A DNA stretch of 64,000 nt, taken from a virus. The position numbers were made by a program, and so were the translations under genes. Below, in pieces: positions 6,296 to 63,942 of this stretch (position 1 is its first letter; every line of letters starts with the position of its first letter). A model generated the notes under the pieces. That model saw nothing but the letters and a program-made list of their open reading frames with translations, had not been told where the DNA came from and did no database searches. Location of the stretch: positions 96,001 to 160,000 of IMG/VR virus record IMGVR_UViG_3300035696_000007, one strand, 5' to 3'.

Positions 6296-7030
6296 ATGGG
6301 CGAAATCCAACAGATGTCGGTCACGCAGGACGTGGTGCTGATCCAGGAGCCGCGCGAGTACTACCTCCGGGCGCCCCCGTGGACCACCTGGACGGAGGTG
6401 CGGCTGGCGATGATGTTCACGATGGTCCCCACGGGGAACTTCTCGTCCTACGCGCCCGCCGAGACCATCGGGCCCCTCACCAACCCCAGCGCCACCTACC
6501 TGGACTGGTTCTGCTGGGGCCTGAAGGACACCTCCAGCAACCTGCCGGGCGCCGCCGGCAGCCAGTTCATCGGCCTGGGCTGGGGGAGCGGCGGGGTCGC
6601 CATCGCCCTGGCCAGCAACCTGTCCGGCAACGGGAACATCGGGAGCGGCGGCGCCCAGATCTACATCGCCCAGAACGGGGCGACGAACGTCGCGACCAGC
6701 ACCGACGCCGGCTTCGTGCTCAGCTTCCCGCAGTACTCCCCGACCGCCTACTGCTTCACCAACGGGCTGAGGTTCGTCGTGAACAACGCGGGCCTGTCCA
6801 CCCAGACGGTCACCGCCAGCTACTACGCCAACATCGCCAGCCTCGCCGGCGACTACAGCGTCGCCAAGCTGCGCACGGACACCTTCAACACCTCATATTC
6901 GGGCTCCAAAACCCTCACCTGGAACAGCGGCGGCGTGGCGCTGGCGCTGCCGTGCTGCTGGTACCTGCGGATGCCCTTCAACCTCAGCCGCGCCAGGATC
7001 TCGACGATGGGCATGTGGAAGGTCTCCTAG
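6296..7030 (+). CDS. Putative fibre-tip/receptor-binding protein, paralog 2
   Basis: Starts MGEIQQMSVTQD after TACTTA; paralog motifs. Confidence 0.6.
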   Translation: MGEIQQMSVTQDVVLIQEPREYYLRAPPWTTWTEVRLAMMFTMVPTGNFSSYAPAETIGPLTNPSATYLDWFCWGLKDTSSNLPGAAGSQFIGLGWGSGGVAIALASNLSGNGNIGSGGAQIYIAQNGATNVATSTDAGFVLSFPQYSPTAYCFTNGLRFVVNNAGLSTQTVTASYYANIASLAGDYSVAKLRTDTFNTSYSGSKTLTWNSGGVALALPCCWYLRMPFNLSRARISTMGMWKVS

Positions 7031-7032
7031 CC

Positions 7033-7752
7033 ATGGGCGAAATCCAGCAGATGCCGGTGACGCAGGACGAGATCCTGATCCAGGAGCCGCGCGAGTCGTT
7101 CCTGCGCTCCCCGCCGTGGACCGCGTGGAACGAGGTGCGCCTGGGCATGACGATCACCTTCGTGCCGGTCGGCGTCTTCCAGCAGGCCTGCACGACCGAG
7201 ACCATCTACCCCTACTCCTATCTCGACTGGGTGTGCTGGGGGCTCAAGGACCCCTCGCTCAACCTCCCGGGGCAGGCGGGCGCCAGCTTCGTCGGCCTGG
7301 GGCTGGGGACCACGGGCGTGAGCAACGTCCTGAGCAACAACGCCAGCGGCACCGGGAACATCACCTGCGCCAGCAACAACGCCCTGGTCAGCGTCTACGG
7401 GACCTCCGTCCTGACCAAGTCCGCCGACACCGGGACGGTCATCCAATTCCCGCAGTACTCCGCCACGCTGTACTGCTTCACCTCCTGCATGAGGCTGGTG
7501 TTGAACAACTCGGGGCTGTCGAACCAGACCATATCCGCCCAGTGGGTCCAGAACACCGCGAGCCTGGCCGGCGACTACAGCGTCAACAAGCTGCGCACGG
7601 ATCTCTTCAACAGCGCCTACGGCTCAACCTACACCCTGACCTGGAACAGCGGCGGCCAGGCGCTGACCCTCCCGTACTGCTGGTATCTGCGGATGCCCTT
7701 CCTCCTGAACCGCGCCCGGATCTCCGCGCTGGCGATGTTCAAAGTGTCCTGA
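7033..7752 (+). CDS. Putative fibre-tip/receptor-binding protein, paralog 3
   Basis: Starts MGEIQQMPVTQD; paralog motifs. Confidence 0.6.
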   Translation: MGEIQQMPVTQDEILIQEPRESFLRSPPWTAWNEVRLGMTITFVPVGVFQQACTTETIYPYSYLDWVCWGLKDPSLNLPGQAGASFVGLGLGTTGVSNVLSNNASGTGNITCASNNALVSVYGTSVLTKSADTGTVIQFPQYSATLYCFTSCMRLVLNNSGLSNQTISAQWVQNTASLAGDYSVNKLRTDLFNSAYGSTYTLTWNSGGQALTLPYCWYLRMPFLLNRARISALAMFKVS

Positions 7753-9303
7753 CCGGGCGCCGCGCTCAACCCGACCCCACAATCTCCTTCCACGGCAGCG
7801 GCACGCCCATCTGGTCGAGCGCCTGCCGCGCCATCTTCGGCAGCCACGGCGGGGCGGGCTTGGACGGCAGGACGTGGGCGCCCCACTCGATGAGACCGCC
7901 GCCGTCGGGGTCGATGGTCAGCACGCGGCGGCCACCGAGCTCGGGGCGGGCCACCCGGTAGGCGTTCATGCTGGGCAGCGGGGAGCCAAGCTGGTAGGCC
8001 ATGACCATCACGCCCTCCAGCCTGTGCTCGGCCACCGGCACCGGGTCGCCGGGTTTGGCGCCCTTGACGTACCAGGCGTCCATGACGAAGCCGAAGTGCA
8101 CCGCCTCGAACGCGAGGGCCATGAGGCGCATAATCTGAAGGTAACGGGGGTTGCGCTCCGGCCCGGCGTCGAAGCACACGGTCACGAGCTCGCCGCCCCG
8201 GCGCTGGAGGGCGGCGGTGATGGGCGGGCACCCGTCGCCGGAGTAGGCCCGGCGGGCGATGCCGTCCAGCTCCTTGAAAAACTCCACGAAGTCGGGTCTG
8301 CCGGGCGCGTCCATGGCAACTAACTAGAACCCCTCCACTCCCCGTCGAAGTCCTCCCGCCGGGCGGGGTCGATCATCTCGACGGCGACCCTGTGGGCCAC
8401 CGGCGAGTGGAAGCCGCCGGGCGTCGAGATGCTCTCACTGACCCGGTAGAGCCTGCCGCGGAAGAAGGTCCTGAACACGCGCCGCTCGTTCGTCCGCTGG
8501 TCGAACGCCAGCGGGAAGCCCTCCCGCTCCAGCCGCAGCTGGACGAGGTCGGCGCAGTCGGAGCAGAAGAACCATCCGAACCGGCCCGGCTTCCTGACGA
8601 ACTTGACGTTGACGGTCACGGACGAGGCAGGTAGGCGAACAGGAAGGACTCCAGCAGCTTGACCGGGGGTGTCTCGCCCCTGCGGCGGCTACGCAGCCGG
8701 AGCGCCGAAGCGGCGCCCGCCACGGGGCCCATGTAACCGAGGGTAGCGGCGAGCAACATCGCCCTGGCCAAGCGGGACGAGCACTCGCCCCGCGCCAACA
8801 CGCAGCTGATCGCCATCAAGGACACGGAACAGCACTGCTCGACGCGCATCTCGGACGCGCGGCTGCGCAGGCCCATGTCCACGGCCAGTGCGCCGCACTG
8901 ACACTTGATGAAGTTGTGGAGGGCGCGCTCGACCAGCGCGGAACCAAGGCAGCGCACATCCTGGCGCCGCCGGGTGACGCGACGGCGCCACAGAACATCC
9001 GCAGGACAGCCAGCGCGATGGCGCAGGACGGTCACCAGCGACCGGCTCCAGCGGGCGTCGCCCTGCCACTTCCAGGAGTACTTCGCGCTCATGGGGGGAG
9101 CGTGACACGTCGGGCCGCGTTTGTAAACAAAAAAGTCTATGACATTCTGTCGGCACGCCGCCTGATCCACACGCCACCCCCGACCCCGGCGAGGAGGAAG
9201 GCGAGGCTCCAGAGGGGCGACGACGAGCCCCACGACAGCCGGCCCATGATGAAGAAGGCGGCCAGCAGCACCGAAACGGGCAGTGCGAAGATCTTCACCA
9301 TGC

Positions 9304-9552
9304 TCACCCCCCGTTAAGGAAGCGCCCAATCTCCCGGGCCAGCCGCAGGGCCTCACCGCCGGTGTCGGCCGAAATCTCGACGCACGGCCCGGCGCTCAGC
9401 GCGACGCTGGCGCTCAGGACGGACCGCCACCTCTCCCCGGGTGGCTGCTGCGTCGCGACCACCCGCCACGGCCCCCACCCTGCCGCGGGCGCCGAACCGC
9501 TTGACGGCGGCGCCGCATCGCCGAAGTCGAACCTACGGATGGGGCGGGCCAT
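9304..9552 (-). CDS. Hypothetical protein with N-terminal IRRFDF motif
   Basis: MARPIRRFDFGD start overlapping upstream gene. Confidence 0.5.
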   Translation of the reverse strand: MARPIRRFDFGDAAPPSSGSAPAAGWGPWRVVATQQPPGERWRSVLSASVALSAGPCVEISADTGGEALRLAREIGRFLNGG

Positions 9553-9939
9553 AGACCTCCTCAACCGCACGGTCGGCGGCGTGGACAGACAAGCCGATCC
9601 ACCCGGGGTTTTTGTCGAGGGTGCACTTGAACACCGTCCACCAGAGCACGGCGCGATCGCCGGCCAGCACCTTGTCGGCCGGGAGCTGAGCGAGCGGCTT
9701 AGCGTCGGCGGGCATGTTGACCACGACCAGCGGGTGGCGATGGACGTACAACCCGAGGGAGAACGCCACGAGCCCGGCGAGCAGAACCCCCACAAGGAAC
9801 CTTTCGAGGCTGATTGATTTGGGCATAAGCTGTTTGCACCCCCAGGCCCACCATCCCAGGGCGACCAGCAGAACCAGGCCGAAGCCGATAGTCTTCGACC
9901 AGACGGGGTGCTCCCTGATGAACCGGGTCGGGTCGTCCA

Positions 9940-10275
9940 TCAGTCCGGCTCCTCCTGGGTGCGGCGCTCCGCAGGCGGGCGGCCCTTCCGGGGCGCGGGG
10001 AGGACGCCGGTCCCGATGGCGACGAGCCGCACGTCCCTCTTCGTCTCCTCGTCGAAGACCGTGCCCGCCTCCTTGAGCACGCCCTTCTGCACCAGCCCGG
10101 TGATCCTGGGCCGCACGGTGTTCGGGTCCTGGTAGCCGAGGGCCATCAGCTGCCGGTCCGTCATGGGGACGCCGGCCACCCGGAGGCTGGCGAGAATCCT
10201 CACCGCCCGCTTCTGCGCCTTCCCGCTCGCGACGAGCTTGTCGTGGGAGGCTGCCGAGTTGTCGTGCACGCCCAT
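9940..10275 (-). CDS. Winged-helix DNA-binding protein
   Basis: MTDRQLMALG..NTVRPRITGLVQKGVLKEAG wHTH pattern. Confidence 0.6.
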   Translation of the reverse strand: MGVHDNSAASHDKLVASGKAQKRAVRILASLRVAGVPMTDRQLMALGYQDPNTVRPRITGLVQKGVLKEAGTVFDEETKRDVRLVAIGTGVLPAPRKGRPPAERRTQEEPD

Positions 10276-10492: not shown

Positions 10493-10888
10493 TCACCCGC
10501 CGACCCCGAAGCGGCCACCCTTGAACCTGACCCTGGTCAGGTCCTCCAGCGGGACGTAGGGCGAAAACCTGCTCGGGCTGTGGCTGTTGTCGAAGACGAA
10601 CTTCCCGTACACGGTCGTGGCGCCCACCGCCGTCCCGTCGTCCTGCAGCCAGACGATCATCTCGTCCCCGACCTCACGCCGATACTCCACCAGCGCGTCG
10701 CCGACCACCGGCTGGCCAACCAGCGAAATGCCCTCCGAAGCCTGGTCCAAGCCTTCCAGGTTGAAGAAGCGGCGGCGGTGCGGCAAGTAGTCGTACTCCC
10801 TGCGACAGAGGCGCTTGACCGTGATCCTCGCGGCGAAGGCGACGAGCACCACCCCAAGCAGGATCGGAATGAGAAGGAGCCAGTTCAT
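10493..10888 (-). CDS. Membrane-anchored hypothetical protein
   Basis: N-terminal hydrophobic helix MNWLLLIPILLGVVLVAFAA. Confidence 0.55.
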   Translation of the reverse strand: MNWLLLIPILLGVVLVAFAARITVKRLCRREYDYLPHRRRFFNLEGLDQASEGISLVGQPVVGDALVEYRREVGDEMIVWLQDDGTAVGATTVYGKFVFDNSHSPSRFSPYVPLEDLTRVRFKGGRFGVGG

Positions 10889-56776: not shown

Positions 56777-57118
56777 ATGAACGCCAAGGCCCTTCTCGAC
56801 CAGCTAGTCGAGATACAGGCGACCCGGAGCATCCCGCGCGAGGCGATGAAGCAGAGGATCGCCCGCGCTTTCCCAAAGCTCTGGATGAAGGACTCGGAGG
56901 AGTTCGACCCCGGAACGAGGGGGGCCATCTGGACGACGGCCGAGGACGCCGACGCCACCGCCTCAGACGGCAACCGCCTCTTCGACGCCTACGCCGAGGA
57001 CTTCAAGGAGACCACCTACGTCCTGGGCGTCCATCGGCAAATGCTCGCCCTCCTCGACGCAGGCGGCTGGTCCGCCGAGTTCTACGACCCAGGCACCGTG
57101 CTGCTCTTCCCCGGCTAG
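56777..57118 (+). CDS. Small late protein with LLDQLVE motif
   Basis: MNAKALLDQLVE; W.AEFYDPGT. Confidence 0.6.
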   Translation: MNAKALLDQLVEIQATRSIPREAMKQRIARAFPKLWMKDSEEFDPGTRGAIWTTAEDADATASDGNRLFDAYAEDFKETTYVLGVHRQMLALLDAGGWSAEFYDPGTVLLFPG

Positions 57119-57759
57119 GCCGGAAGAACGAACGGCAGGTGCTGCGGGTCGCGGGCGTCGCGCAGCCGGATAATGACGGGCATGGTCGGCGGCGCCTTCG
57201 GGGCGCGCCGGAGCTTGAGGCCAACCTGGTGCGGCAGGCGGTCCCCCTTGAGCGTGTTGGTGGCCTTGCGGGTGACGACGACGTTCTCCCAGACGGTCTT
57301 GCCGCCGGAGTGGCGGGAGACGACGTGGTCGATGTTCCACTCGCCCGGCTGGAGCCGGCGGTCGTCCGCCGCGTACTGGTCGAGGCCGTGGTCGCGCTCG
57401 TAGACGGCCTTCGGCGTGCACTTGACCGTGCGCACCGGGACCTTGTCGTAGTGCTGGCAGATGAGGACCATCGGGACGCGCACGCGCTGGTGCGCGGCCT
57501 GGAGCCAGAGGTCGAACGGGCGGATCGGGAGCTTCAGCCAGTCCCCCCAGGCGGTCGGGATCGAGCGAACCGGGCGCAGGTAGTCGAACTCGCCGTCGGC
57601 GCCGACGGCGAACTCCAGGTCCATGGCGAACTTCGCCGGGCCCCGGCCCATCAGGCCGCCGTTCATGTCGACGATGGCCTGCCGGACCGTGCGCCAGCCG
57701 ATGGCCCGCCAGTGACGGTTCAGGGAGAGGACGATTGGCTTGTCGAGATCCGCGAACAT
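57115..57759 (-). CDS. HNH endonuclease (McrA-like)
   Basis: VLSLNRHW, VYERD..QY, NIDHVVSRHSGG..WENVV..N..KGD. Confidence 0.85.
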   Translation of the reverse strand: MFADLDKPIVLSLNRHWRAIGWRTVRQAIVDMNGGLMGRGPAKFAMDLEFAVGADGEFDYLRPVRSIPTAWGDWLKLPIRPFDLWLQAAHQRVRVPMVLICQHYDKVPVRTVKCTPKAVYERDHGLDQYAADDRRLQPGEWNIDHVVSRHSGGKTVWENVVVTRKATNTLKGDRLPHQVGLKLRRAPKAPPTMPVIIRLRDARDPQHLPFVLPA

Positions 57760-57802
57760 AAGATGACTCTGAGCGGTGGTTCCTTCGTAGAAAAGTTGAA
57801 AG

Positions 57803-57897
57803 TGGCGGAGGCGTGCGGTTCCGCCCCGCGCCGGGCTTGACCTCGGTCCCGGGTTAGCAACCCGGTCGGACTTCTGGATGTCCTGCTTACTGCCTCC
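57803..57897 (-). tRNA. tRNA-Ser(GCU), atypical 8/4 fold
   Basis: CCGGG-TTGCTAA-CCCGG; long V arm; G73-CCA. Confidence 0.7.
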
Positions 57898-57903
57898 GAA
57901 AGA

Positions 57904-57990
57904 TGGCGGAAGGCGATGGAGTTGCGCCATTGTCCTTGCGGGCACTGCGGTTTTCGAGACCGTTCGAGGAGACTACCCTCAGCGCCTTCC
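57904..57990 (-). tRNA. tRNA-Ser(CGA), 8/4 fold
   Basis: GGAAGGCG/CGCCTTCC acceptor; CTCGAAA loop; CCA. Confidence 0.8.
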
Positions 57991-58004
57991 GAAAATGGTA
58001 TTAT

Positions 58005-58036
58005 TTAGGCTTATCACACTAGATGAGTTACTAATA
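58005..58036. repeat. 32-bp AT-rich site, copy 2
   Basis: TTAGGCTTATCA-CACTAG-ATGAGTTACTAATA. Confidence 0.7.
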
Positions 58037-58038
58037 GA

Positions 58039-58126
58039 TGGCGGAGGGCGGAGATCTCGCGTCCCAGCGGCTCGCGCCGCCCCATGAGCTTCCAACTCAG
58101 GCCGACCCTCGGCCGGTTCACCCTCC
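58039..58126 (-). tRNA. tRNA-Ser(GGA), 8/4 fold
   Basis: GGAGGGTG/CGCCCTCC acceptor; TTGGAAG loop; CCA. Confidence 0.8.
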
Positions 58127-58409
58127 GAAAAGGAAATCGTTGACAAAACCGCGCCGGGAACAATCGGTGGTCGCGGGGATGTTTACGAAATCATGGTGGC
58201 CCGGCAGCTGGCTCGTGCGCGTCTCGGCCCGGAAGAAGGTCGTGCGCAGCTTCCAGTGCCTGACCTTCGACGACGCGAGGCTGGAGGCCTCCAAGGCCGT
58301 GAACGCCCGGCGCCTGCGCAGGCACCCGCTGCCGACGGCCGTCACCGTGGCGCTGATCGAGGGGCCGGGCCGGACGAGCCCGGAGATGCCCCTCTTCAGC
58401 GGCGGAAAG

Positions 58410-58485
58410 TGGTCCCCCCGCCCGGATTCGCGCCGGGATCTGCGCCTTAGGACGACGCGGCCCTGTCTAGTTGGACGACGGGGAG
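58410..58485 (-). tRNA. tRNA-Arg(CCU)
   Basis: GCGTC-GTCCTAA-GGCGC; CCA. Confidence 0.85.
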
Positions 58486-58486
58486 A

Positions 58487-58562
58487 TGGTAGGGGCGGTG
58501 GGACTCCCACCCACACTATGCCGGGTTCGTAGCCCGGGTGACTAATAATTGCCGACGCCCCC
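58487..58562 (-). tRNA. tRNA-Arg(ACG)
   Basis: CCGGG-CTACGAA-CCCGG; CCA. Confidence 0.85.
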
Positions 58563-58586
58563 AAGATTGAAAAAGGTAGTTACGGC

Positions 58587-59009
58587 ATGAACAAGAGCCG
58601 ACGGGTGATCAGCCAGCTGACGGAAGCCGGGCCGGACCAGGGACAGAAGCCCGACGCCCTCGCGGCACTGGTGGCCTTCGCCAAAGAGGTGGTCGAGGCG
58701 TTCGAGGAGCACGAGTCCGGCGACCTCAACGACATCCCGGCGGACATCGTCATCGAGCGCGGCCGGGCCGCGCTGAAGCTGGCCGGCGCGGACGTGTCCA
58801 GCCTGCAGAAGTACAAGGTCGAGCAGCTCTTCGGCGGCGACTGGGGCGACCCGCAGTGGGAGGAGAACGAACACCCCATGCGCTTCGACACCGAGGAGGA
58901 GGCCTGGGTGGAGGTCGACGAGTTCCTCGCCGACGCGGCGGCCGCCGCGGAGGCCGGGCACATGGCGGCGGGGTTCAGCCGGGACGAGTTCCGGGTCGTC
59001 CCCGCCTGA
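58587..59009 (+). CDS. Acidic small late protein (VISQLTE motif)
   Basis: TAGTTA-N4-ATG. Confidence 0.65.
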   Translation: MNKSRRVISQLTEAGPDQGQKPDALAALVAFAKEVVEAFEEHESGDLNDIPADIVIERGRAALKLAGADVSSLQKYKVEQLFGGDWGDPQWEENEHPMRFDTEEEAWVEVDEFLADAAAAAEAGHMAAGFSRDEFRVVPA

Positions 59010-59012
59010 GAG

Positions 59013-59088
59013 TGGACCCCGCGGCGGGATTCGCACCCGCACCACCGGCCTTAGAACGACCGGGCGCTGTCTGTTACACCACGCGGGG
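59013..59088 (-). tRNA. tRNA-Arg(UCU)
   Basis: CGGTC-GTTCTAA-GGCCG; CCA. Confidence 0.8.
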
Positions 59089-59104
59089 AAGGGGTACTTA
59101 GGCC

Positions 59105-59341
59105 ATGAAGAGCGCCGTCGAGAGGCTGCTGGAGGACGACCGGCAACCGTGGAGCCACGAGAACACGGTCAACGCCATCGTCGGCTCGTTCGTCGGCTTC
59201 GACTTGGACGCCAGCGTCGCCAGGCTGCGCGTCCTCCTGGCCAAGGTGCCCGACCCGCTGCTGCGCCAGGTCTACGACGCGATGCACGCGGGCGAGGAGG
59301 ACACCCTCGCGAGGGGCCCCTACCGGTTCACCGACAAGTGA
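59105..59341 (+). CDS. Small late protein (AVERLLE motif)
   Basis: TACTTA-N4-ATG. Confidence 0.65.
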   Translation: MKSAVERLLEDDRQPWSHENTVNAIVGSFVGFDLDASVARLRVLLAKVPDPLLRQVYDAMHAGEEDTLARGPYRFTDK

Positions 59342-59342
59342 G

Positions 59343-59416
59343 TGGTCGCCCCGCCGGGAATCCCACCCGGGACGCGGCCTTCGGAGGGCCGCATGATATG
59401 GCTTCACCACGGGGCG
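59343..59416 (-). tRNA. tRNA-Arg(CCG)
   Basis: CGGCC-CTCCGAA-GGCCG; CCA. Confidence 0.85.
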
Positions 59417-59420
59417 AAAT

Positions 59421-59497
59421 TGGGGCGATCGACGGGGCTTGCACCCGCAACCCGCGGGCTCACAACCCGCTGCTCTGCTGATTGAGCTACGACCGCC
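59421..59497 (-). tRNA. tRNA-His(GUG)
   Basis: G-1:C73; GCGGG-TTGTGAG-CCCGC. Confidence 0.9.
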
Positions 59498-59498
59498 G

Positions 59499-59573
59499 TG
59501 GGGCCTCAGTGGGGATTTGCGCCCCCCTGTCCGATTTACAAAATCGGTCCCTCGCTGCCTAGGGGTCTGAGGC
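59499..59573 (-). tRNA. tRNA-Thr(UGU)
   Basis: CCGAT-TTTGTAA-ATCGG; CCA. Confidence 0.85.
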
Positions 59574-59596
59574 GAAGTCGAAGTTGTAGTTAAGGC

Positions 59597-59917
59597 ATGG
59601 AAAAGACTCCTGCACCGAAGCCGAAGCTGCGTGGAACCATGGCGCCGGGTTCCGCCCTCCTCAGCCTTGTCGCCGACATCGAGGCGATGCAGACCAATGT
59701 CCCCGACGAATATGAGGGGGATGCGGCTGACCGCGGCTGGTTCGGCCCCTTCGAAACAGGGGTGTCCGCGTACGAGCGGGGCCACTTCATCCTGTGGCCC
59801 AACCTTGAAATCCTTCTGGTGCAAGCCAAGGCGGCCCTGGAGGCGACCAAACCAAGAGGCTCCGCCGGCCCGGTCGAATCCAAAGCCTCCCGCCTCGTCG
59901 ACAGGCTACTCGAATGA
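59597..59917 (+). CDS. Small late protein (C-term LVDRLLE)
   Basis: TAGTTA-N4-ATG. Confidence 0.65.
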   Translation: MEKTPAPKPKLRGTMAPGSALLSLVADIEAMQTNVPDEYEGDAADRGWFGPFETGVSAYERGHFILWPNLEILLVQAKAALEATKPRGSAGPVESKASRLVDRLLE

Positions 59918-60399
59918 GCCACCGTTTCATCCTTTTCGGCGGCGGGTCTGGGAACGTCTACGGCGTCAGCGACGCCGCGAGCTTCGAGGAGGCGTGGAAG
60001 GAGATCCTGGCGGCGGGCGGGCCGCTGGGCTACTCGGCTGGCGGGGAGCCCGGGGGCGAGGTCGAGCGCGAGTGGCCCGAGTTCGACGACATGTCGGTGA
60101 TGCTCGGGGGCGCGGAGATCGAGAAAAAGGACGGCTACTGGCTGATCACCGCCCGCGACTCGGACGAGGGCCAGTTCGGACTGCTGGACGCCCAGTCCGC
60201 CAACTCGGCGGTGCAAAAGGAGATCGAGGATCTCGGCCTGCAGAAGTACGCCGACGAGTTCGTCGCCGAGAAGGCCGCGCTGGACGCCGAGGCCGAGGAC
60301 GAGATGCACCGCCAGGCGGTCTACGCGCAGGCGCCGCAGCACGAGTCGGTCAAGGCGGCCGCGAAACGGCTGGTCGACGCGCTGCTCGGCGAGGCCTGA
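59914..60399 (+). CDS. Acidic late protein (C-term LVDALLGEA)
   Basis: ATGA overlap with upstream gene. Confidence 0.65.
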   Translation: MSHRFILFGGGSGNVYGVSDAASFEEAWKEILAAGGPLGYSAGGEPGGEVEREWPEFDDMSVMLGGAEIEKKDGYWLITARDSDEGQFGLLDAQSANSAVQKEIEDLGLQKYADEFVAEKAALDAEAEDEMHRQAVYAQAPQHESVKAAAKRLVDALLGEA

Positions 60400-60402
60400 A
60401 AG

Positions 60403-60478
60403 TGGGGCCACCGACCCGAGTCGCACGGGCAACGTCCTGTTTACGGAACAGGTGCTCTGCTGATTGAGCTACGGCGGC
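60403..60478 (-). tRNA. tRNA-Thr(CGU)
   Basis: CCTGT-TCCGTAA-ACAGG. Confidence 0.85.
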
Positions 60479-60483
60479 GAGAT

Positions 60484-60558
60484 TGGTAGGCGCGGGAGGG
60501 GTTTCGCCTCCACCCAAGGGATTATGGGTCCCCTGCTCTGAGATTGAGCTACGCGCCC
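60484..60558 (-). tRNA. tRNA(CAU), Ile2 or Met
   Basis: GGGGA-CCCATAA-TCCCT. Confidence 0.8.
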
Positions 60559-60562
60559 GAAG

Positions 60563-60648
60563 TGGTGCGGCCGGCGCGAATCGCACGCGCACGCCCCGGA
60601 GGGCAGCGGGGTTTAGGCCCGCCGCGTCTGCTGTTCCGCCACGGCCGC
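60563..60648 (-). tRNA. tRNA-Leu(UAA)
   Basis: GCGGG-CCTAAAC-CCCGC; long V arm; A73. Confidence 0.85.
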
Positions 60649-60653
60649 GAAGT

Positions 60654-60737
60654 TGGTGGGGGCGGAGGGGGTTGCACCCTCATGCCTCGCGGCCGGGGGT
60701 TTTGGGTCCCCTGCGTATGCTGTTCCGCCACGCCCCC
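60654..60737 (-). tRNA. tRNA-Leu(CAA)
   Basis: CCCAAAA loop; long V arm. Confidence 0.85.
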
Positions 60738-60742
60738 GAGAT

Positions 60743-60819
60743 TGGCGGCGGCGACGGGAGTTGCACCCGCATTTCACCGGCTGAGAACCGGGGTTCCTAG
60801 GCTGTTAGAAGACGCCGCC
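60743..60819 (-). tRNA. tRNA-Glu(CUC)
   Basis: CCGG-TTCTCAG-CCGG. Confidence 0.85.
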
Positions 60820-60826
60820 ATGAAAT

Positions 60827-60902
60827 TGGCCGCCCCGACGGGATTCCCACCCGTGTCGCAGGCTTGAAGGGCCCGCATCCTGGGATGCTAGAAGACGGGG
60901 CG
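60827..60902 (-). tRNA. tRNA-Glu(UUC)
   Basis: CGGGC-CCTTCAA-GCCTG. Confidence 0.85.
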
Positions 60903-60905
60903 AAA

Positions 60906-60990
60906 TGGTACGGGTAGAGGGACTCGCACCCCCATGCCTTGCGGCGCCGCCTTCTGAGGGCGGTGTGTCTGCTGATTCCACCATACCCGC
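60906..60990 (-). tRNA. tRNA-Leu(CAG)
   Basis: CCGCC-CTCAGAA-GGCGG. Confidence 0.9.
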
Positions 60991-60996
60991 GTGAAA

Positions 60997-61254
60997 CTAT
61001 TCGGCCATCGCCCTGCGGATCGCGGCGAGCGCGGCCGGGTCCCCGGCCTTGGCCCTCTTGGCGAACAGGGCGAACGAGGTCCCCCTGACGGCGTCGGTGA
61101 CCGGCTTCCGGCCGTGGAGCCTCTGGAGGTCGAGCTCGGCGGCGCGGCGGGCGACTCTCTCGCCGTAGGCGTCGCGCAGCCACCGCACGGCGTCCACCGT
61201 GCTGCCCTCCTCCCTGGGCCTGGCCAGGGCGTCGGCTATCCTGACGAGCCTCAT
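60997..61254 (-). CDS. Small late protein
   Basis: TACTTA-N4-ATG. Confidence 0.55.
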   Translation of the reverse strand: MRLVRIADALARPREEGSTVDAVRWLRDAYGERVARRAAELDLQRLHGRKPVTDAVRGTSFALFAKRAKAGDPAALAAIRRAMAE

Positions 61255-61266
61255 GCCCTAAGTAAA

Positions 61267-61351
61267 TGGTGCGGTCAGGGGGAGTCGCACCCCCACGGGT
61301 CACCCCACCGGCCCCTCAAGCCGGCGCGTCTGCTGGTTCCGCCATGACCGC
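61267..61351 (-). tRNA. tRNA-Leu(GAG)
   Basis: CCGGC-TTGAGGG-GCCGG. Confidence 0.9.
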
Positions 61352-61361
61352 GAAAAATCGT

Positions 61362-61625
61362 TCAGCCCCGGACGTGGTACTCGATGCGCAGCCGGGCCCT
61401 GTCCTCCGCCGAAACGCACTCCCAGCACTCCACCTGGCCGGGGAAGAATACCCGCACGGGCAGGTCCTCGGGGTAGTCGCCCTTCATCTCGACGAAGACG
61501 GTGTGGCAGCGCTTCTCGGCGTCCCAGAGGTTCAGCTGGGCCGCGCACCCCGAAAGGAGCCGCCCGCCGACTTTGAACCTGATTTTGATGCCGTGCGGCG
61601 GCAGGAGCCTGTTGATGCTGATCAT
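61362..61625 (-). CDS. Hypothetical protein
   Basis: GTTCT-N7-ATG. Confidence 0.55.
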   Translation of the reverse strand: MISINRLLPPHGIKIRFKVGGRLLSGCAAQLNLWDAEKRCHTVFVEMKGDYPEDLPVRVFFPGQVECWECVSAEDRARLRIEYHVRG

Positions 61626-61641
61626 GCCCGTAAGAACAAAG

Positions 61642-61717
61642 TGGGGCCTCCTGTCGGATTTGCGCCGACCGTCCTCCCCTTACCAAGGGGTAGCATCGCT
61701 GCCTATGCTTAGGAGGC
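61642..61717 (-). tRNA. tRNA-Thr(GGU)
   Basis: CCCC-TTGGTAA-GGGG. Confidence 0.85.
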
Positions 61718-61718
61718 G

Positions 61719-61795
61719 TGGTAGCACCGGTCGGATTTGCGCCGACGACCTTCCCCTTATGAGGGGGCTGCGCTGGCTGGCTGCGCCACGGTGCC
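61719..61795 (-). tRNA. tRNA-Met(CAU)
   Basis: CCCC-CTCATAA-GGGG; GGC..GCT A73. Confidence 0.85.
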
Positions 61796-61802
61796 ATGAA
61801 GT

Positions 61803-61881
61803 TGGTGGGGGCCGAGGCAGTTGCAGCCTCACGGATGGTCCGGGTAAGGGCCGGGTGCCCGTCTACTGTGGCTTGACCCCC
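61803..61881 (-). tRNA. tRNA-Lys(CUU)
   Basis: CCGG-CCCTTAC-CCGG; CCA. Confidence 0.75.
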
Positions 61882-61888
61882 GAAAGTT

Positions 61889-62098
61889 TTCCAGCCCGAG
61901 CGTAGCCGCGATTCTGTTTTATCCGCACATCACTCTAGGCCGCTACCATGCCCTCTTGACGGGAAGCACTACCCTGGGGCCCTTTTGCGTTGCAGCTACC
62001 ATGCGGTGTTGGCGGGCCCGCGCCCTCCCGATCGGCTGCTTTGCTGTCGCGAACTTCCTCCGGGGACGAGCCCCGGCGTGCAGTCCTCTTGGCTGGAA
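61889..62098 (-). ncRNA. rnpB: Miniature RNase P RNA (catalytic domain, nearly no S-domain)
   Basis: P1 TTCCAGCC/GGCTGGAA; GAGGAAGTTCGCGA pairs with ACAGAATCGCGGCTA (P4 with bulged U); P5 CAGC/GCTG+CAA; P6 AAGCA/TGCTT; L15 GGTA; CCTAGAGTGATG. Confidence 0.88.
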
Positions 62099-62105
62099 TC
62101 GAAAG

Positions 62106-62180
62106 TGGCTGGGGCGGCAGGATTCGCGCCTGCGCCATCGGGGTTCAAGGCCCCGCGTGCTGCTGTTACACCACGCCCCA
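62106..62180 (-). tRNA. tRNA-Gln(UUG)
   Basis: CGGGG-CCTTGAA-CCCCG; U1-A72, G73. Confidence 0.88.
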
Positions 62181-62200
62181 AAAAGCTGTTCTGACGAGGC

Positions 62201-62836
62201 ATGGTCGACTACTCGACGATCCCCGCCTCCTGCCAGATCCCCGGCCTGGCGGGCATCTACCGGAAGTGGCTCGCGCCCGCGGAGACGGGCGCCTTCGTCG
62301 AGGTGGGGGCCTACAGCGGCATCGCCTACAGCAACACCTACTGCTTCTGCCTCGCGGGCTGGCGCGGGCTGCAGATCGAGCCGCACCCCGCGACCTTCGC
62401 CTCGCTGCTGGAGAACATGCGGCCCTTCCCGAACGTCGCCTGCGAGCAGGTGGCCTGCTCGGACTGCGACGGGGAGGCGAGGCTGTACGACATGGGGGAG
62501 TGCTCCACGCTCGTGCTGGACGAGAACGCGCGGGCCTGGGGCTGCCGCGAGGACCGGTTCATCGTGGTCAGGACGACCCGGCTGGACGGGCTGCTGGAGA
62601 GGCACGCCATCCCGCCCGGCTTCGAGGTGCTGGTCGTCGACGTCGAGGGGGCGGAGCTGTCGGTGCTGGCCGGGCTCGACCTGCGGCGGTGGCGCCCGAG
62701 GATGGCGATCGTGGAGACGCACGAGAAGCACCCGAGCATCCTACACCCCAACGCCTGGGCCATCACCAAGCACTTTGAGGACCGGGGCTACTGCAAGGTC
62801 TACGCCGACCACATCAACAGCATCTTCGCCCGCTGA
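62201..62836 (+). CDS. FkbM-family methyltransferase
   Basis: FVEVGAYSG..SNT, GWRGLQIEP, VDVEGAE..VLAG. Confidence 0.88.
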   Translation: MVDYSTIPASCQIPGLAGIYRKWLAPAETGAFVEVGAYSGIAYSNTYCFCLAGWRGLQIEPHPATFASLLENMRPFPNVACEQVACSDCDGEARLYDMGECSTLVLDENARAWGCREDRFIVVRTTRLDGLLERHAIPPGFEVLVVDVEGAELSVLAGLDLRRWRPRMAIVETHEKHPSILHPNAWAITKHFEDRGYCKVYADHINSIFAR

Positions 62837-62839
62837 AAC

Positions 62840-62915
62840 TGGTGGAGGTGGCGGGATTCGCACCCGCGGCCTACGCGATGCCATCGCGCCGCTCTGCTGG
62901 CTGAGCTACACCCCC
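62840..62915 (-). tRNA. tRNA-Ala(GGC)
   Basis: G3:U70; ATGGCAT loop. Confidence 0.9.
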
Positions 62916-62964
62916 GAAAAAGTTGATCCAAGCAGCCGCGCTTAGAGTTCTTGTTTACATTCCC

Positions 62965-63360
62965 ATGAACACGAAACAGACGCTGCAGACACTGTTGAGC
63001 TACTACACGGCGACCCGCAAGATCGGCCACACCCGCGCGATGCTTGCCGGGGCGCAGAATACAGATGGTTGTCTTATTCTCACCGGCGTGGATGACATCG
63101 CCCTGACTCCCCCCAAAGGCGCCTCGTGCGTCAACGTCGTCTATGACGACAATCTGGTCCAACACTTCGTGGGTGTGCGCAAGCCCATGCTAGTGGACAA
63201 CTCCGCCATCGAGCACATCCTGCGCACGTCGCTGGCCGAGATCACCCGGCTGGAGACCCACGTCAAGCGGCTGAAGACCGAGAAGGCGCACCTGGCGCAG
63301 GGCAGACCCGGCCAGATCCCGGCCGAGGCCCCGGCGGCCCCCGGCGAGCTGCCGGCCTGA
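62965..63360 (+). CDS. Hypothetical protein
   Basis: Clean ORF after GTTCT; RKIGHT, LVDNSA. Confidence 0.55.
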   Translation: MNTKQTLQTLLSYYTATRKIGHTRAMLAGAQNTDGCLILTGVDDIALTPPKGASCVNVVYDDNLVQHFVGVRKPMLVDNSAIEHILRTSLAEITRLETHVKRLKTEKAHLAQGRPGQIPAEAPAAPGELPA

Positions 63361-63363
63361 AAG

Positions 63364-63438
63364 TGGCTGCGGCGACTGGCTACGCTCCAGTGACTTCGGT
63401 TTCAGAGACCGACGTGTTACTAGCTACACCACACCGCA
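63364..63438 (-). tRNA. tRNA-Gln(CUG)
   Basis: TCGGT-CTCTGAA-ACCGA. Confidence 0.85.
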
Positions 63439-63480
63439 AAGGAGTCTTCTTCACCGTCCGAGAACAGACCGTGCGTAGAT

Positions 63481-63557
63481 TGGTCGGCCCGGTGGGATTC
63501 GCACCCACGGTCTCTTGCTCCCGAAGCAAGCGCGATACTAGGCTACGCCACGGGCCG
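63481..63557 (-). tRNA. tRNA-Pro(CGG)
   Basis: CTTGC-TTCGGGA-GCAAG; C1-G72. Confidence 0.9.
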
Positions 63558-63565
63558 AACGGAAA

Positions 63566-63641
63566 TGGTGGTCGGCGGGGGACTCGCACCCCCGGTCCCC
63601 TGCATGTCGCGCAGGTGCCTTGGCTGCTGGGCTAGCCGACC
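63566..63641 (-). tRNA. tRNA-Val(GAC)
   Basis: CCTGC-GCGACAT-GCAGG. Confidence 0.85.
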
Positions 63642-63648
63642 GGAAAGC

Positions 63649-63725
63649 TGGTCGGGCCGGCGGGATTCGCACCCGCGGTCTCCTGCACCCCATGCAGGCG
63701 CGATGCTAGGCTACGCTACGGCCCG
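63649..63725 (-). tRNA. tRNA-Pro(GGG)
   Basis: CCTGC-ATGGGGT-GCAGG. Confidence 0.9.
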
Positions 63726-63730
63726 GAAGA

Positions 63731-63805
63731 TGGCTGCTCGGGCAGGACTCGCACCTGCAACCCTGGTGTTAACAGCACCCCGCTCTACTTTGGAGCTACC
63801 GAGCA
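63731..63805 (-). tRNA. tRNA-Asn(GUU)
   Basis: GGTG-CTGTTAA-CACC; G73. Confidence 0.9.
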
Positions 63806-63813
63806 ATGGAAAG

Positions 63814-63942
63814 TGGTGCCGGCGCTTGGAGTCGAACCAAGTCTAGTCTATTAGCAGTAGAAGTAACCCTCGTCATCACTGCGCCTTGCGACGAGAATAG
63901 GAGACCCGGGTGTTTTCTGTGCTACCGTTACACTACACCGGC
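63814..63942 (-). ncRNA. tRNA-like RNA with about 55-nt insertion between D and anticodon arms (Y-RNA/Yrl-like candidate)
   Basis: GCCGGTG/CGCCGGC-ACCA acceptor, canonical GG D-loop and TTCGA T-loop, TCTA-CTGCTAA-TAGA arm. Confidence 0.6.

Follow-up and report, generated by a model that had tools for sequence, protein, structure and literature searches.

A phage-borne array of tRNA genes, of the type known from L-arrays, probably encodes working tRNAs whose elbow is held together by a tertiary pair other than the usual one. A18 and G55 stand in these genes where G18 and U55, the latter as pseudouridine (Psi55), would be expected. In cytoplasmic tRNA the G18-Psi55 pair is regarded as all but universal. 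The array was found in a stretch of 64,000 nucleotides, referred to here as the window and given as positions 96,001 to 160,000 of IMG/VR record IMGVR_UViG_3300035696_000007, which represents bases 15584-79583 (reverse strand) of an 82.8-kb IMG/VR virus record (CheckV completeness 37%). Between positions 57803 and 63805 of the window, a custom cloverleaf scanner with no loop-sequence requirement, complemented by hand inspection of the remaining NCCA sites, located 27 CCA-ended cloverleaves on the minus strand, the number counted in a first-pass annotation made from the sequence alone. All 27 have a 7-bp acceptor stem, D, anticodon and T arms and a 7-nt anticodon loop, as in tRNA (Rfam RF00005).

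Position 55 is G in every one of the 27, as annotated, and the site of pseudouridine-55 is thereby removed. The annotation had placed A18 in nearly all of these genes; it is clear in 24, position 18 is C in one (tRNA(CAU), 60484-60558), and two Ser tRNAs are not safely numbered. The T-loop pentamers are TGCGA (10), TGCAA (4), CGCAA (4), CGCGA (3), TGGGA (3), CGAAA (1), AGCGT (1) and GGCGG (1), and the D-loops, which lack the usual GG, read ..CAGCA, ..TAGCA or ..TAGTA. The claim that the T-loops are never TTC stands within the interval but not outside it, as TTCGACT occurs in a tRNA-like RNA, or mimic, at 63814-63942 and, beyond the window, TTCGAGC is found in a tRNA(CAU) and TTCGAAT in a second mimic. 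The outer elbow pair, G19 with C56, is kept in 22 of the 27 and otherwise replaced in step: as had been noticed, all three tRNAs with G56 (Arg ACG, Arg CCG and Glu UUC) carry A-T at positions 18-19, and the tRNA with A56 (CAU, 60484) has U19. The near-invariant elbow of tRNA (Rfam RF00005), with G18, G19, U55 and C56, is not conserved, a deviation which leaves the genes in the tRNA class.

When the array DNA was compared with GenBank phages, the only matches were four weak ones to tRNA-Leu genes, all in canonical arrays, and these served as controls. In two of them, RcXuper (a Rhodobacter phage) and DSS3_MAL1, the same scanner found U55 in 49 of 49 tRNAs and assigned G18 in 47; their T-loops are nearly all TTCRA, with one ATCGT in each array. 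Because U55 is uniform in these two phage arrays, chance is excluded, and the G55/A18 pattern is confirmed as lying far beyond it.

Co-variation and conservation of the elbow bases

To place these observations in a wider set, tRNAs from 18 arrays were pooled, with position 19 taken as the D-loop base complementary to base 56 and position 18 as the base before it. G18/U55 was found in 98 tRNAs and A18/G55 in 190, against a single case each of G18/G55 and A18/U55 (Fisher p = 5e-76), and the association is also seen inside single mixed arrays (p = 1e-4 to 0.015). Position 19 tracks position 56 in most cases where the latter is not C (U:G, U:A, A:U and C:G), in line with the 19/56 co-variation first noticed in the window. 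Within G55 loops positions 54 and 58 co-vary too, T or C54 occurring with A58, G54 with G58 and A54 with U58, and the closing pair 53:61 is G:C in 206 of 213 G55 T-loops.

A direct comparison of orthologues is provided by G001, a 238-kb, 96%-complete IMG/VR contig of 55% GC with a portal protein 54% identical to that of the present phage (G000 in cross-phage comparisons). It has an array of 27 tRNAs at 183.6-212 kb which is mostly G55/A18, and all four of its U55 tRNAs have GG D-loops. The tRNA-Pro(UGG) has T-loop CGCGCAT with D-loop AGCCTAGCA in G000 and ATCGAAG with AGCCTGGCG in G001, while 14 of 17 stem pairs are identical; the elbow thus reads AGCCT-A-GCA with C-G-CGCAT in the former and AGCCT-G-GCG with A-T-CGAAG in the latter. 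In Asn(GUU) and Lys(UUU), as in Pro(UGG), both elbow bases have switched together between the two phages. The 18/55 co-variation is therefore seen at three levels, over the 18 arrays, inside mixed genomes and between the G001 orthologues.

Across the isoacceptors shared by G000 and G001, 152 of 374 stem pairs have changed on both sides and 11 on one side, so that about 40% have been replaced; the excess of two-sided changes indicates that the cloverleaves have been maintained through deep divergence. The same design recurs in more than 12 independent assemblies and in a sequenced plasmid of a cultured cyanobacterium. The suggestion that the pattern reflects selection rather than decay is borne out by the near-perfect 18/55 co-variation and by these compensatory stem changes.

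GC pressure was considered as a cause and rejected. The T-to-G change at position 55 raises GC content while the G-to-A change at 18 lowers it, and TTC persists in the mimic at 63814-63942.

The array and the contig that carries it

The 27 tRNA genes of the interval are listed below with their T-loop and, after it, their D-loop. All are on the minus strand.

63731..63805, minus: tRNA-Asn(GUU); TGCGAGT; CAAAGTA (A18 G19)
63649..63725, minus: tRNA-Pro(GGG); TGCGAAT; AGCCTAGCA; the G001 orthologue has compensatory stem changes
63566..63641, minus: tRNA-Val(GAC); TGCGAGT; AGCAGCCA
63481..63557, minus: tRNA-Pro(CGG); TGCGAAT; AGCCTAGTA
63364..63438, minus: tRNA-Gln(CUG); AGCGTAG (A54 G55 .. U58); AGCTAGTA
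62840..62915, minus: tRNA-Ala(GGC), with G3:U70; TGCGAAT; AGCCAGCA
62106..62180, minus: tRNA-Gln(UUG); CGCGAAT; AACAGCA
61803..61881, minus: tRNA-Lys(CUU), variable region of 8 nt; TGCAACT; AGTAG in the D-loop
61719..61795, minus: tRNA-Met(CAU); CGCAAAT; AGCCAGCCA
61642..61717, minus: tRNA-Thr(GGU); CGCAAAT; AGGCAGCG
61267..61351, minus: tRNA-Leu(GAG), long variable arm; TGCGACT; AACCAGCAG
60906..60990, minus: tRNA-Leu(CAG); TGCGAGT; AATCAGCAG
60827..60902, minus: tRNA-Glu(UUC); TGGGAAT (G55 G56); AGCATCCCA (A18 U19)
60743..60819, minus: tRNA-Glu(CUC); TGCAACT; T-arm identical to that of Glu(CUC) in the Anabaena trn operon
60654..60737, minus: tRNA-Leu(CAA); TGCAACC; AACAGCAT
60563..60648, minus: tRNA-Leu(UAA); TGCGATT; AACAGCAG
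60484..60558, minus: tRNA(CAU); CGAAACC (G55 A56); AATCTCA (C18 U19)
60403..60478, minus: tRNA-Thr(CGU); TGCGACT; AATCAGCA
59499..59573, minus: tRNA-Thr(UGU); CGCAAAT; AGGCAGCG
59421..59497, minus: tRNA-His(GUG), encoded G-1 and C73; TGCAAGC; AATCAGCA
59343..59416, minus: tRNA-Arg(CCG); TGGGATT (G56); AGCCATA (A18 U19)
59013..59088, minus: tRNA-Arg(UCU); TGCGAAT; AACAGACA
58487..58562, minus: tRNA-Arg(ACG); TGGGAGT (G56); AATTATTA (A18 U19)
58410..58485, minus: tRNA-Arg(CCU); CGCGAAT; AACTAGACA
58039..58126, minus: tRNA-Ser(GGA), long variable arm; CGCGAGA; D-loop numbering ambiguous
57904..57990, minus: tRNA-Ser(CGA); CGCAACT; GGTAGTCTC
57803..57897, minus: tRNA-Ser(GCU); GGCGGAA (G54 G55 .. 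G58); D-loop numbering ambiguous

NCCA is encoded in all of them, and long variable arms are present in the Leu, Ser and Tyr tRNAs of the array. The identity elements and CCA ends, reported as intact, were checked in the sequence and are so, including G3:U70 in tRNA-Ala and G-1/C73 in tRNA-His. With default settings, ARAGORN detects 16 of the 27; in an Rfam scan of the whole window 11 reach the gathering score, and in a laxer scan 17 do so.

The limits 57803-63805 hold for these 27 genes but not for the array, which runs about 5 kb past the end of the window to contig position 10811. (Coordinates prefixed L134 refer to the same contig, including the part beyond the window.) In the whole contig about 40 tRNAs are encoded by a single strand within 11 kb, and small genes, several of them on the opposite strand, are interspersed; 38 of the tRNAs have G55, and all 20 amino acids are covered. 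G55 is lacking in a tRNA-Gly(GCC), whose T-loop is GCCAGCA, and in the tRNA(CAU) beyond the window, in which TTCGAGC accompanies a GG D-loop. A few members of the array have weak D-arms. One well-formed G55 cloverleaf (L134:15424-15500) has the anticodon loop CCACACA and hence the anticodon ACA, which is not normally used in bacteria.

The GC content is about 67%, and the window encodes a portal protein, collagen-like tail fibres, a helicase, a primase and a baseplate spike, as well as an open reading frame of 1895 residues. The portal distantly resembles those of jumbo phages, and relatives with 51-56% identity were found in 13 other IMG/VR contigs. Among these only G001 has an array. In G002 (L150), a 203-kb relative, just one tRNA is present; it is canonical, and with its anticodon, UUA, it would decode the stop codon UAA, making stop-codon recoding possible in that phage; in G003-G005, which are fragments, tRNAs were not detected.

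Small protein genes lie between the tRNA genes from 58587 to 63360, several of them on the plus strand. One of the latter (62201-62836) encodes an FkbM-family methyltransferase, and others encode proteins with no informative family match. Two small open reading frames, 60997-61254 and 61362-61625, are on the minus strand with the tRNAs. Searches of the small array-embedded proteins with PADLOC and NCBIfam gave nothing informative. The array region of G001 also encodes methyltransferases, glycosyltransferases and the RNA-quality-control protein Ro60, discussed below. Just upstream of the array (L134:1967-6931, minus strand, and 6942-10259) are genes for a 1654-residue collagen-repeat protein and two GT2 glycosyltransferases, one of the latter fused to TPR repeats and the other to a methyltransferase domain.

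An intergenic stretch of about 210 nt at 61889-62098 (minus strand) was considered as a candidate RNase P RNA and rejected, as no Rfam RNase P match was obtained even at E values up to 10; nor was one found at the gathering score in related arrays. The stretch folds stably (-82 kcal/mol over 229 nt), and the sole similar element is a weak nhmmer match in another G55 array (L346:3104-3245).

A mobile array family and its linked genes

A scan of IMG/VR with a T-arm 17-mer shared by four tRNAs of the window retrieved contigs unrelated to the phage in which the tRNAs are all G55/A18. L045/L100 carry 22-29 such tRNAs, and L090 carries 22 in which CCA is not encoded. Mixed arrays were also found, with G55 in 5 of 17 tRNAs in L079 and in 3 of 22 in L108. 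Two features that flank the tRNA genes of the interval bear on this family.

57115-57762, minus: gene for an HNH nuclease of 214 aa, immediately 3' of the last tRNA; homologues in or beside every G55 array examined
63814..63942, minus: CCA-ended tRNA-like RNA with T-loop TTCGACT, a GG D-loop and an inserted stem of about 55 nt

When the proteins of the phage were compared with the array loci by tblastn, the HNH nuclease was the single shared gene apart from Ro60. Homologues with 29-45% identity are situated within the arrays of G001, L045/L100, L090, L256, L380 and L381 or at their 3' ends, such that all seven arrays examined (these and G000), none of which had been found via HNH, carry one. 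Conversely, an IMG/VR search with the HNH alignment yielded 439 relatives, many in low-GC contigs without tRNAs. Of the best 80 loci, seven have a GC content of 0.52-0.66, and five of these carry large G55 arrays (24/26, 18/18, 21/27, 8/9 and 26/27 tRNAs with G55); of the remaining two, L358 shows a single G55 tRNA in range, while in L356 there is none. The approximately 70 low-GC loci among the best 80 have few or no tRNAs, nearly all canonical.

The HNH domain itself matches those of type II-D Cas9 and IscB in profile searches of the PDB (E = 2e-12 to 7e-12), and a structural model gives a VIA Z of 9.4 over residues 112-191. Residues 8-110 have weak structural matches to the N-termini of IscB and IsrB (Z 3.6-4.1); a sequence search with this N-terminal half found no match, and Foldseek and VIA run on the model identified only the HNH half. 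An IshB-like architecture (PLMP plus HNH) is a lead suggested by the model, and not a result.

A Ro60/TROVE gene is present inside the phage array (L134:12130-13584), and in G000, G001, L380 and L079 alike the array has such a gene within it or next to it; in L380 an RtcB gene adjoins the array as well. The best match of the phage Ro60, LR745206.1 (44% identity), was rejected as a relative, since it has 29% GC and no tRNAs nearby. The tRNA-like RNA at 63814..63942 is one of three such mimics of 126-134 nt, the others lying beyond the window (L134:14082-14215 and L134:14220-14345). All three have the inserted stem (..TCTCGYCGCRAGGCGCAGTGA..GGGTTACTTC..), and in two of them, in contrast to the surrounding tRNAs, the T-loop is canonical (TTCGACT or TTCGAAT). 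Because a Ro60/TROVE gene lies inside the array, the mimics are candidate Y RNAs for its product.

The combination of tRNAs and HNH gene, with or without Ro60, is thus found in phages ranging in GC from 0.52 to 0.67 which share no other detected genes, and in contigs of two Verrucomicrobiota metagenome-assembled genomes (MAGs). On this distribution the A18/G55 state belongs to a mobile family of arrays as a whole, and an independent origin for each isoacceptor of the phage is not needed.

The two MAGs, G006 (labelled Opitutus) and G008, were identified from 17-mer matches and have G55 arrays of 19 and 12 tRNAs, respectively. Both arrays have cellular genes at their sides. In G006 those on one side encode RtcB, an AAA ATPase, HNH and Ro60, and those on the other LysR, a TonB-dependent receptor and an MFS transporter; in G008 the flanking genes encode a class II fructose-bisphosphate aldolase and an MFS protein, with DUF1552- and DUF1592-type proteins on the other side. 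The portal was not found in three MAGs searched with that of the present phage, and the MAG arrays are therefore not prophages of this phage type. The dispersed tRNAs sampled in G006 and G008 have TTCRA with GG in 20 of 20 cases, while the arrays there are G55. Where array and cellular set are visible together the cell's own tRNAs are canonical, although mis-binning of both contigs cannot be fully excluded.

Single A18/G55 tRNAs also occur in MAGs of Saccharibacteria (His) and of Marsarchaeota and Mancarchaeum (Ala CGC) at loci L193, L237 and L253, so the swap is not confined to arrays. In L021, L024 and about 25 further IMG/VR loci, on small contigs of about 61% GC, an identical tRNA-Tyr(GUA) has T-loop TGCGAAT, D-loop GAGCAGACGAA (A18 G19) and no encoded CCA; it may be a host attachment-site tRNA with an A18/G55 elbow.

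L-arrays have been described as clusters of up to 43 tRNA genes which spread horizontally (Santamaria-Gomez et al., NAR 2021, PMC8421152) and which occur in Verrucomicrobia, Planctomycetes, Actinobacteria, Cyanobacteria, Proteobacteria and phages, with a conserved HNH gene adjoining and rtcB in the neighbourhood (PMC8421152). By its gene content and arrangement, the phage array matches this type. Both consist of dozens of closely spaced, same-strand tRNA genes with little periodicity; both show horizontal spread, encompassing Verrucomicrobia, other phyla and phages; and the HNH domain of the phage is 39% identical (residues 117-190) to that of the gene beside the trn operon on plasmid delta of Anabaena/Nostoc sp. 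PCC 7120. As for rtcB, it lies near the homologous array of G006, and none was found on the phage contig. The arrays differ in that nearly every tRNA is A18/G55 here and in at least 11 further arrays, whereas the Anabaena array is mostly canonical, and in that the present array is carried, along with Ro60 and tRNA mimics, by a large phage of lytic type.

Translational stress induces the Anabaena array; charging in vivo was observed for 23 of the 26 tRNAs, and operonic tRNAs were present on polysomes (PMC8421152). Among 19 tRNAs parsed from the operon, two have G55 and 17 are canonical. The two are Glu(CUC), with T-loop TGCAACT, and Ile(GAU), with GGCAGTA, and both are A18-G19. The operonic tRNA-Ile(GAU) is reported to be aminoacylated in vivo and to have an aberrant gel mobility (PMC8421152), and it is one experimental data point for a tRNA of the G55 type. 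The T-loop, the D-loop, G18 and U55 are not mentioned in the main text of that paper (PMC8421152).

Canonical phage arrays (RcXuper, DSS3_MAL1 and T4) resemble the present one in being large, CCA-encoding and near structural genes, and in their accessory RNA genes, with a transfer-messenger RNA (tmRNA) in DSS3_MAL1 as in G001; the T4 tRNA cluster also has an endonuclease gene, SegB, embedded in it. The control arrays RcXuper and DSS3_MAL1 differ in their uniform U55, and no HNH homologue was found in the 24 kb examined.

The nature of the elbow and its possible use

The elbow of canonical tRNA involves G18, which is stacked between bases 57 and 58 in contact with U55, and a pair formed by G19 and C56 (PMC7912444). 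T-loops are also found outside tRNA, in flavin mononucleotide (FMN) and cobalamin riboswitches, RNase P, ribosomal RNA (rRNA) and group II introns. These non-tRNA T-loops have the consensus YGNRA, with UGNRA in 88.7% and CGNRA in 10.9% of FMN riboswitches, from which the UUCRA loops of tRNA have been set apart, and in 99.96% of FMN riboswitches it is an adenosine that serves as the receptor base intercalated between positions 4 and 5 (bioRxiv 10.1101/2022.12.26.521914). In the env8 cobalamin riboswitch this base, A61, is joined by two hydrogen bonds to the sugar edge of the G at position 2 (PDB 4FRG; bioRxiv 10.1101/2022.12.26.521914). The tRNAs of the window have YGNRA in 25 of 27 T-loops, including the minority C54 form, and the motif occurs in 157 of 213 G55 T-loops overall. 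Y54-G55-N56-R57-A58 with A18 would correspond to the Y-G-N-R-A pentamer, closed by a helix and followed by two flipped-out bases, with an intercalated adenosine bonded to its position-2 G. The GGNRG type is likewise represented in both groups, by GGCAG or GGCGG here and by an rRNA GGAAG loop (bioRxiv 10.1101/2022.12.26.521914). There are two differences: non-tRNA T-loops dock onto receptors in large RNAs, whereas the receptor here is the tRNA's own D-loop, and the position-3 base here still pairs with base 19 in the fashion of tRNA.

The exact T-arm 17-mer of four tRNAs in the window recurs in the 5' domains of group II introns, in cobalamin riboswitches and in the T-arms of bacterial tmRNAs, and in genome collections its matches are mostly to these three RNAs and not to tRNAs. 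Since it recurs in unrelated structured RNAs, the loop is a common stable fold. The tmRNA of G001 (L177:3212-3642) has a G55-type T-loop, GGCAGTG, and the 3' ends of many bacterial tmRNAs in IMG/VR and GTDB have TGCGAAT. Judged by its bases, the new elbow is an ordinary T-loop of the non-tRNA type and no novel design: the pair of T-loop and receptor specific to tRNA (UUCRA with G) appears to have been exchanged for the general one (YGNRA with A), with the 19:56 pair kept. The tRNAs would accordingly be predicted to lack Psi55 and 2'-O-methylguanosine at position 18 (Gm18), and about one-third of them, having C, A or G at position 54, would also lack 5-methyluridine there (m5U54).

It is proposed, then, that A18 replaces G18 between bases 57 and 58 and bonds to G55, while the outer 19:56 pair is retained and co-varies (G:C, U:G or U:A). 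A YGNRA loop with an adenosine intercalated on its position-2 G would preserve the L-shape, and the decoding set supplied by the array would be nearly complete, since every one of the 20 amino acids is represented and CCA is encoded. The trait would be inherited with a mobile module, consisting of the tRNAs, the linked HNH gene and often Ro60, in unrelated phages and on bacterial chromosomes.

Several points weigh against this interpretation or moderate the figures given in its favour. The geometry of the A18-G55 contact is taken by analogy from riboswitch structures (PDB 4FRG). Shared ancestry inflates the co-variation totals, and the 190 A18/G55 cases represent roughly ten independent switches. 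The rule that assigns positions 18 and 19 makes use of complementarity to base 56, so the 18/55 table is independent of it and the 19/56 table is not; similarly, the scanner requires paired stems, and the kept pairing in the stem statistics is partly built in. The Anabaena L-array is mostly canonical, so that HNH linkage is a trait of L-arrays and not of the G55 state. Finally, nothing that was found points to a specific enzyme which is escaped by the swap.

What benefit the swap may bring is a matter for tentative suggestion. Phage tRNAs are known to escape tRNA-cleaving defences such as PARIS AriB, retron PtuAB and anticodon nucleases (PMC10264068, PMC11555353, PMC12409363), and the toxin CdiA-CT E479 is a tRNase which cuts the T-loop between T and Psi (PMC9086364). 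The authors of the L-array study linked the arrays to toxin RNases and RtcB repair (PMC8421152). A set of tRNAs that is independent of, and unrecognised by, proteins reading the canonical elbow might dispense with modification enzymes, those for Psi55, Gm18 and m5U54 included, and evade tRNases directed at the T-loop or elbow, during infection or translational stress; we consider this possible, though well short of probable. The parallel with the escape papers is that sequence changes in phage tRNAs protect against tRNA-directed nucleases; the difference is that those cases concern single tRNAs and changes in the anticodon loop, here the whole set and the elbow, and the link between them is a hypothesis. 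A broader version, which we regard as rather doubtful, is that the arrays represent a second, orthogonal class of tRNA elbow on a mobile spare translation kit, invisible to enzymes and nucleases that read TPsiC and GG and able to sustain translation under tRNA attack or under-modification. Such a kit, made up of the long array of tRNAs with an IshB-like HNH nuclease and of Ro60 with the tRNA mimics as its Y RNAs, in some cases along with RtcB and tmRNA, would move between phages and bacteria.

The RNAs could instead serve mainly as decoys or sponges for tRNases induced by stress or defence, or as Ro60 ligands, with the elbow keeping them out of normal tRNA pathways. Sponging and other non-canonical roles were raised by the L-array authors (PMC8421152), and the Ro60/TROVE genes at the arrays of G000, G001, L380 and L079, the RtcB gene in L380 and the three mimics with an inserted stem would all fit such a role. 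A decoy would have no need, however, of a full anticodon repertoire or of Ala G3:U70 and His G-1, and for each of the 20 amino acids the array has tRNAs whose identity elements, anticodon loops and CCA ends are correct. It is the mimics, moreover, that are candidate ligands of Ro60, two of three having the canonical T-loop, and the operonic tRNAs of Anabaena are charged and on polysomes (PMC8421152). A role chiefly as decoys or ligands is thus unlikely.

It is less likely again that selection acted on the DNA, with the HNH protein as a homing endonuclease which cuts the T-arms of canonical tRNA genes, the T55-to-G change conferring self-immunity and G18-to-A compensating for it. This would account for the strict linkage of the HNH gene to G55 arrays and for a change that is array-wide, as for a common target site, and it has a precedent in T4 SegB, a homing endonuclease of a tRNA cluster which prefers to cut within tRNA genes (PMC8421152; PMC2330249). 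Yet canonical GGTTCRA T-arms survive in HNH-linked arrays: in the mimic at 63814-63942, in the tRNA(CAU) and second mimic beyond the window, in an initiator-like tRNA(CAU) of G001 (with a C1/A72 mismatch) and in tRNAs of L346, L348, L357 and L381. The Anabaena array beside a homologous HNH gene is mostly canonical, and GTTCRA is not depleted in genomes with HNH-linked arrays.

That the phage simply mirrors a host whose own tRNAs use A18/G55, which had been named as one finding that would refute the annotation, is very improbable. The matter was looked at in the MAGs G006 and G008, in which the canonical state of all 20 dispersed tRNAs sampled argues against the host being like the array. Scattered cellular A18/G55 tRNAs do exist, namely those of Saccharibacteria and of the Marsarchaeota and Mancarchaeum MAGs, but no examined genome is A18/G55 throughout its dispersed tRNAs. 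The array type is found in phages of widely differing GC as well as in the two MAGs, and so travels independently of any one host, and the contig has canonical elbows of its own in the mimic at 63814-63942 and in the tRNA(CAU) and second mimic beyond the window. Decaying pseudogenes or an assembly artefact, which might be suspected from the 11 to 16 of 27 genes that default finders miss and from the weak D-arms of a few members, are already contradicted by the comparative data, namely intact cloverleaves with CCA ends, compensatory stem changes between phages, near-perfect 18/55 co-variation and a design shared by more than a dozen independent assemblies and a cultured cyanobacterium's plasmid.

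Literature searches, which missed most subscription journals, found no description of an A18/G55 tRNA elbow. The A18/G55 array is apparently an undescribed variant, of which the present member is unusually complete; what is new here is the strict linkage to HNH, the contrast between array and chromosome in two MAGs, the two G55 tRNAs of the Anabaena operon and the 54:58 co-variation. Because default finders miss 40 to 60% of A18/G55 genes, tRNA counts in phages and MAGs are underestimated.

When G18-Psi55 was examined in a yeast suppressor tRNA, none of its single mutations was tolerated (PMC4117946). In the present array an entire decoding set has another, co-varying pair in its place. If these tRNAs work, Psi55, Gm18 and often m5U54 would be dispensable for a complete set of tRNAs, the T-loops of tRNAs and riboswitches would be interchangeable solutions to one folding problem, and the array would offer an orthogonal tRNA scaffold for engineering. 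The finding also connects the literature on phage tRNA escape with the unexplained L-arrays, and makes of the elbow a testable handle on why such arrays are retained.

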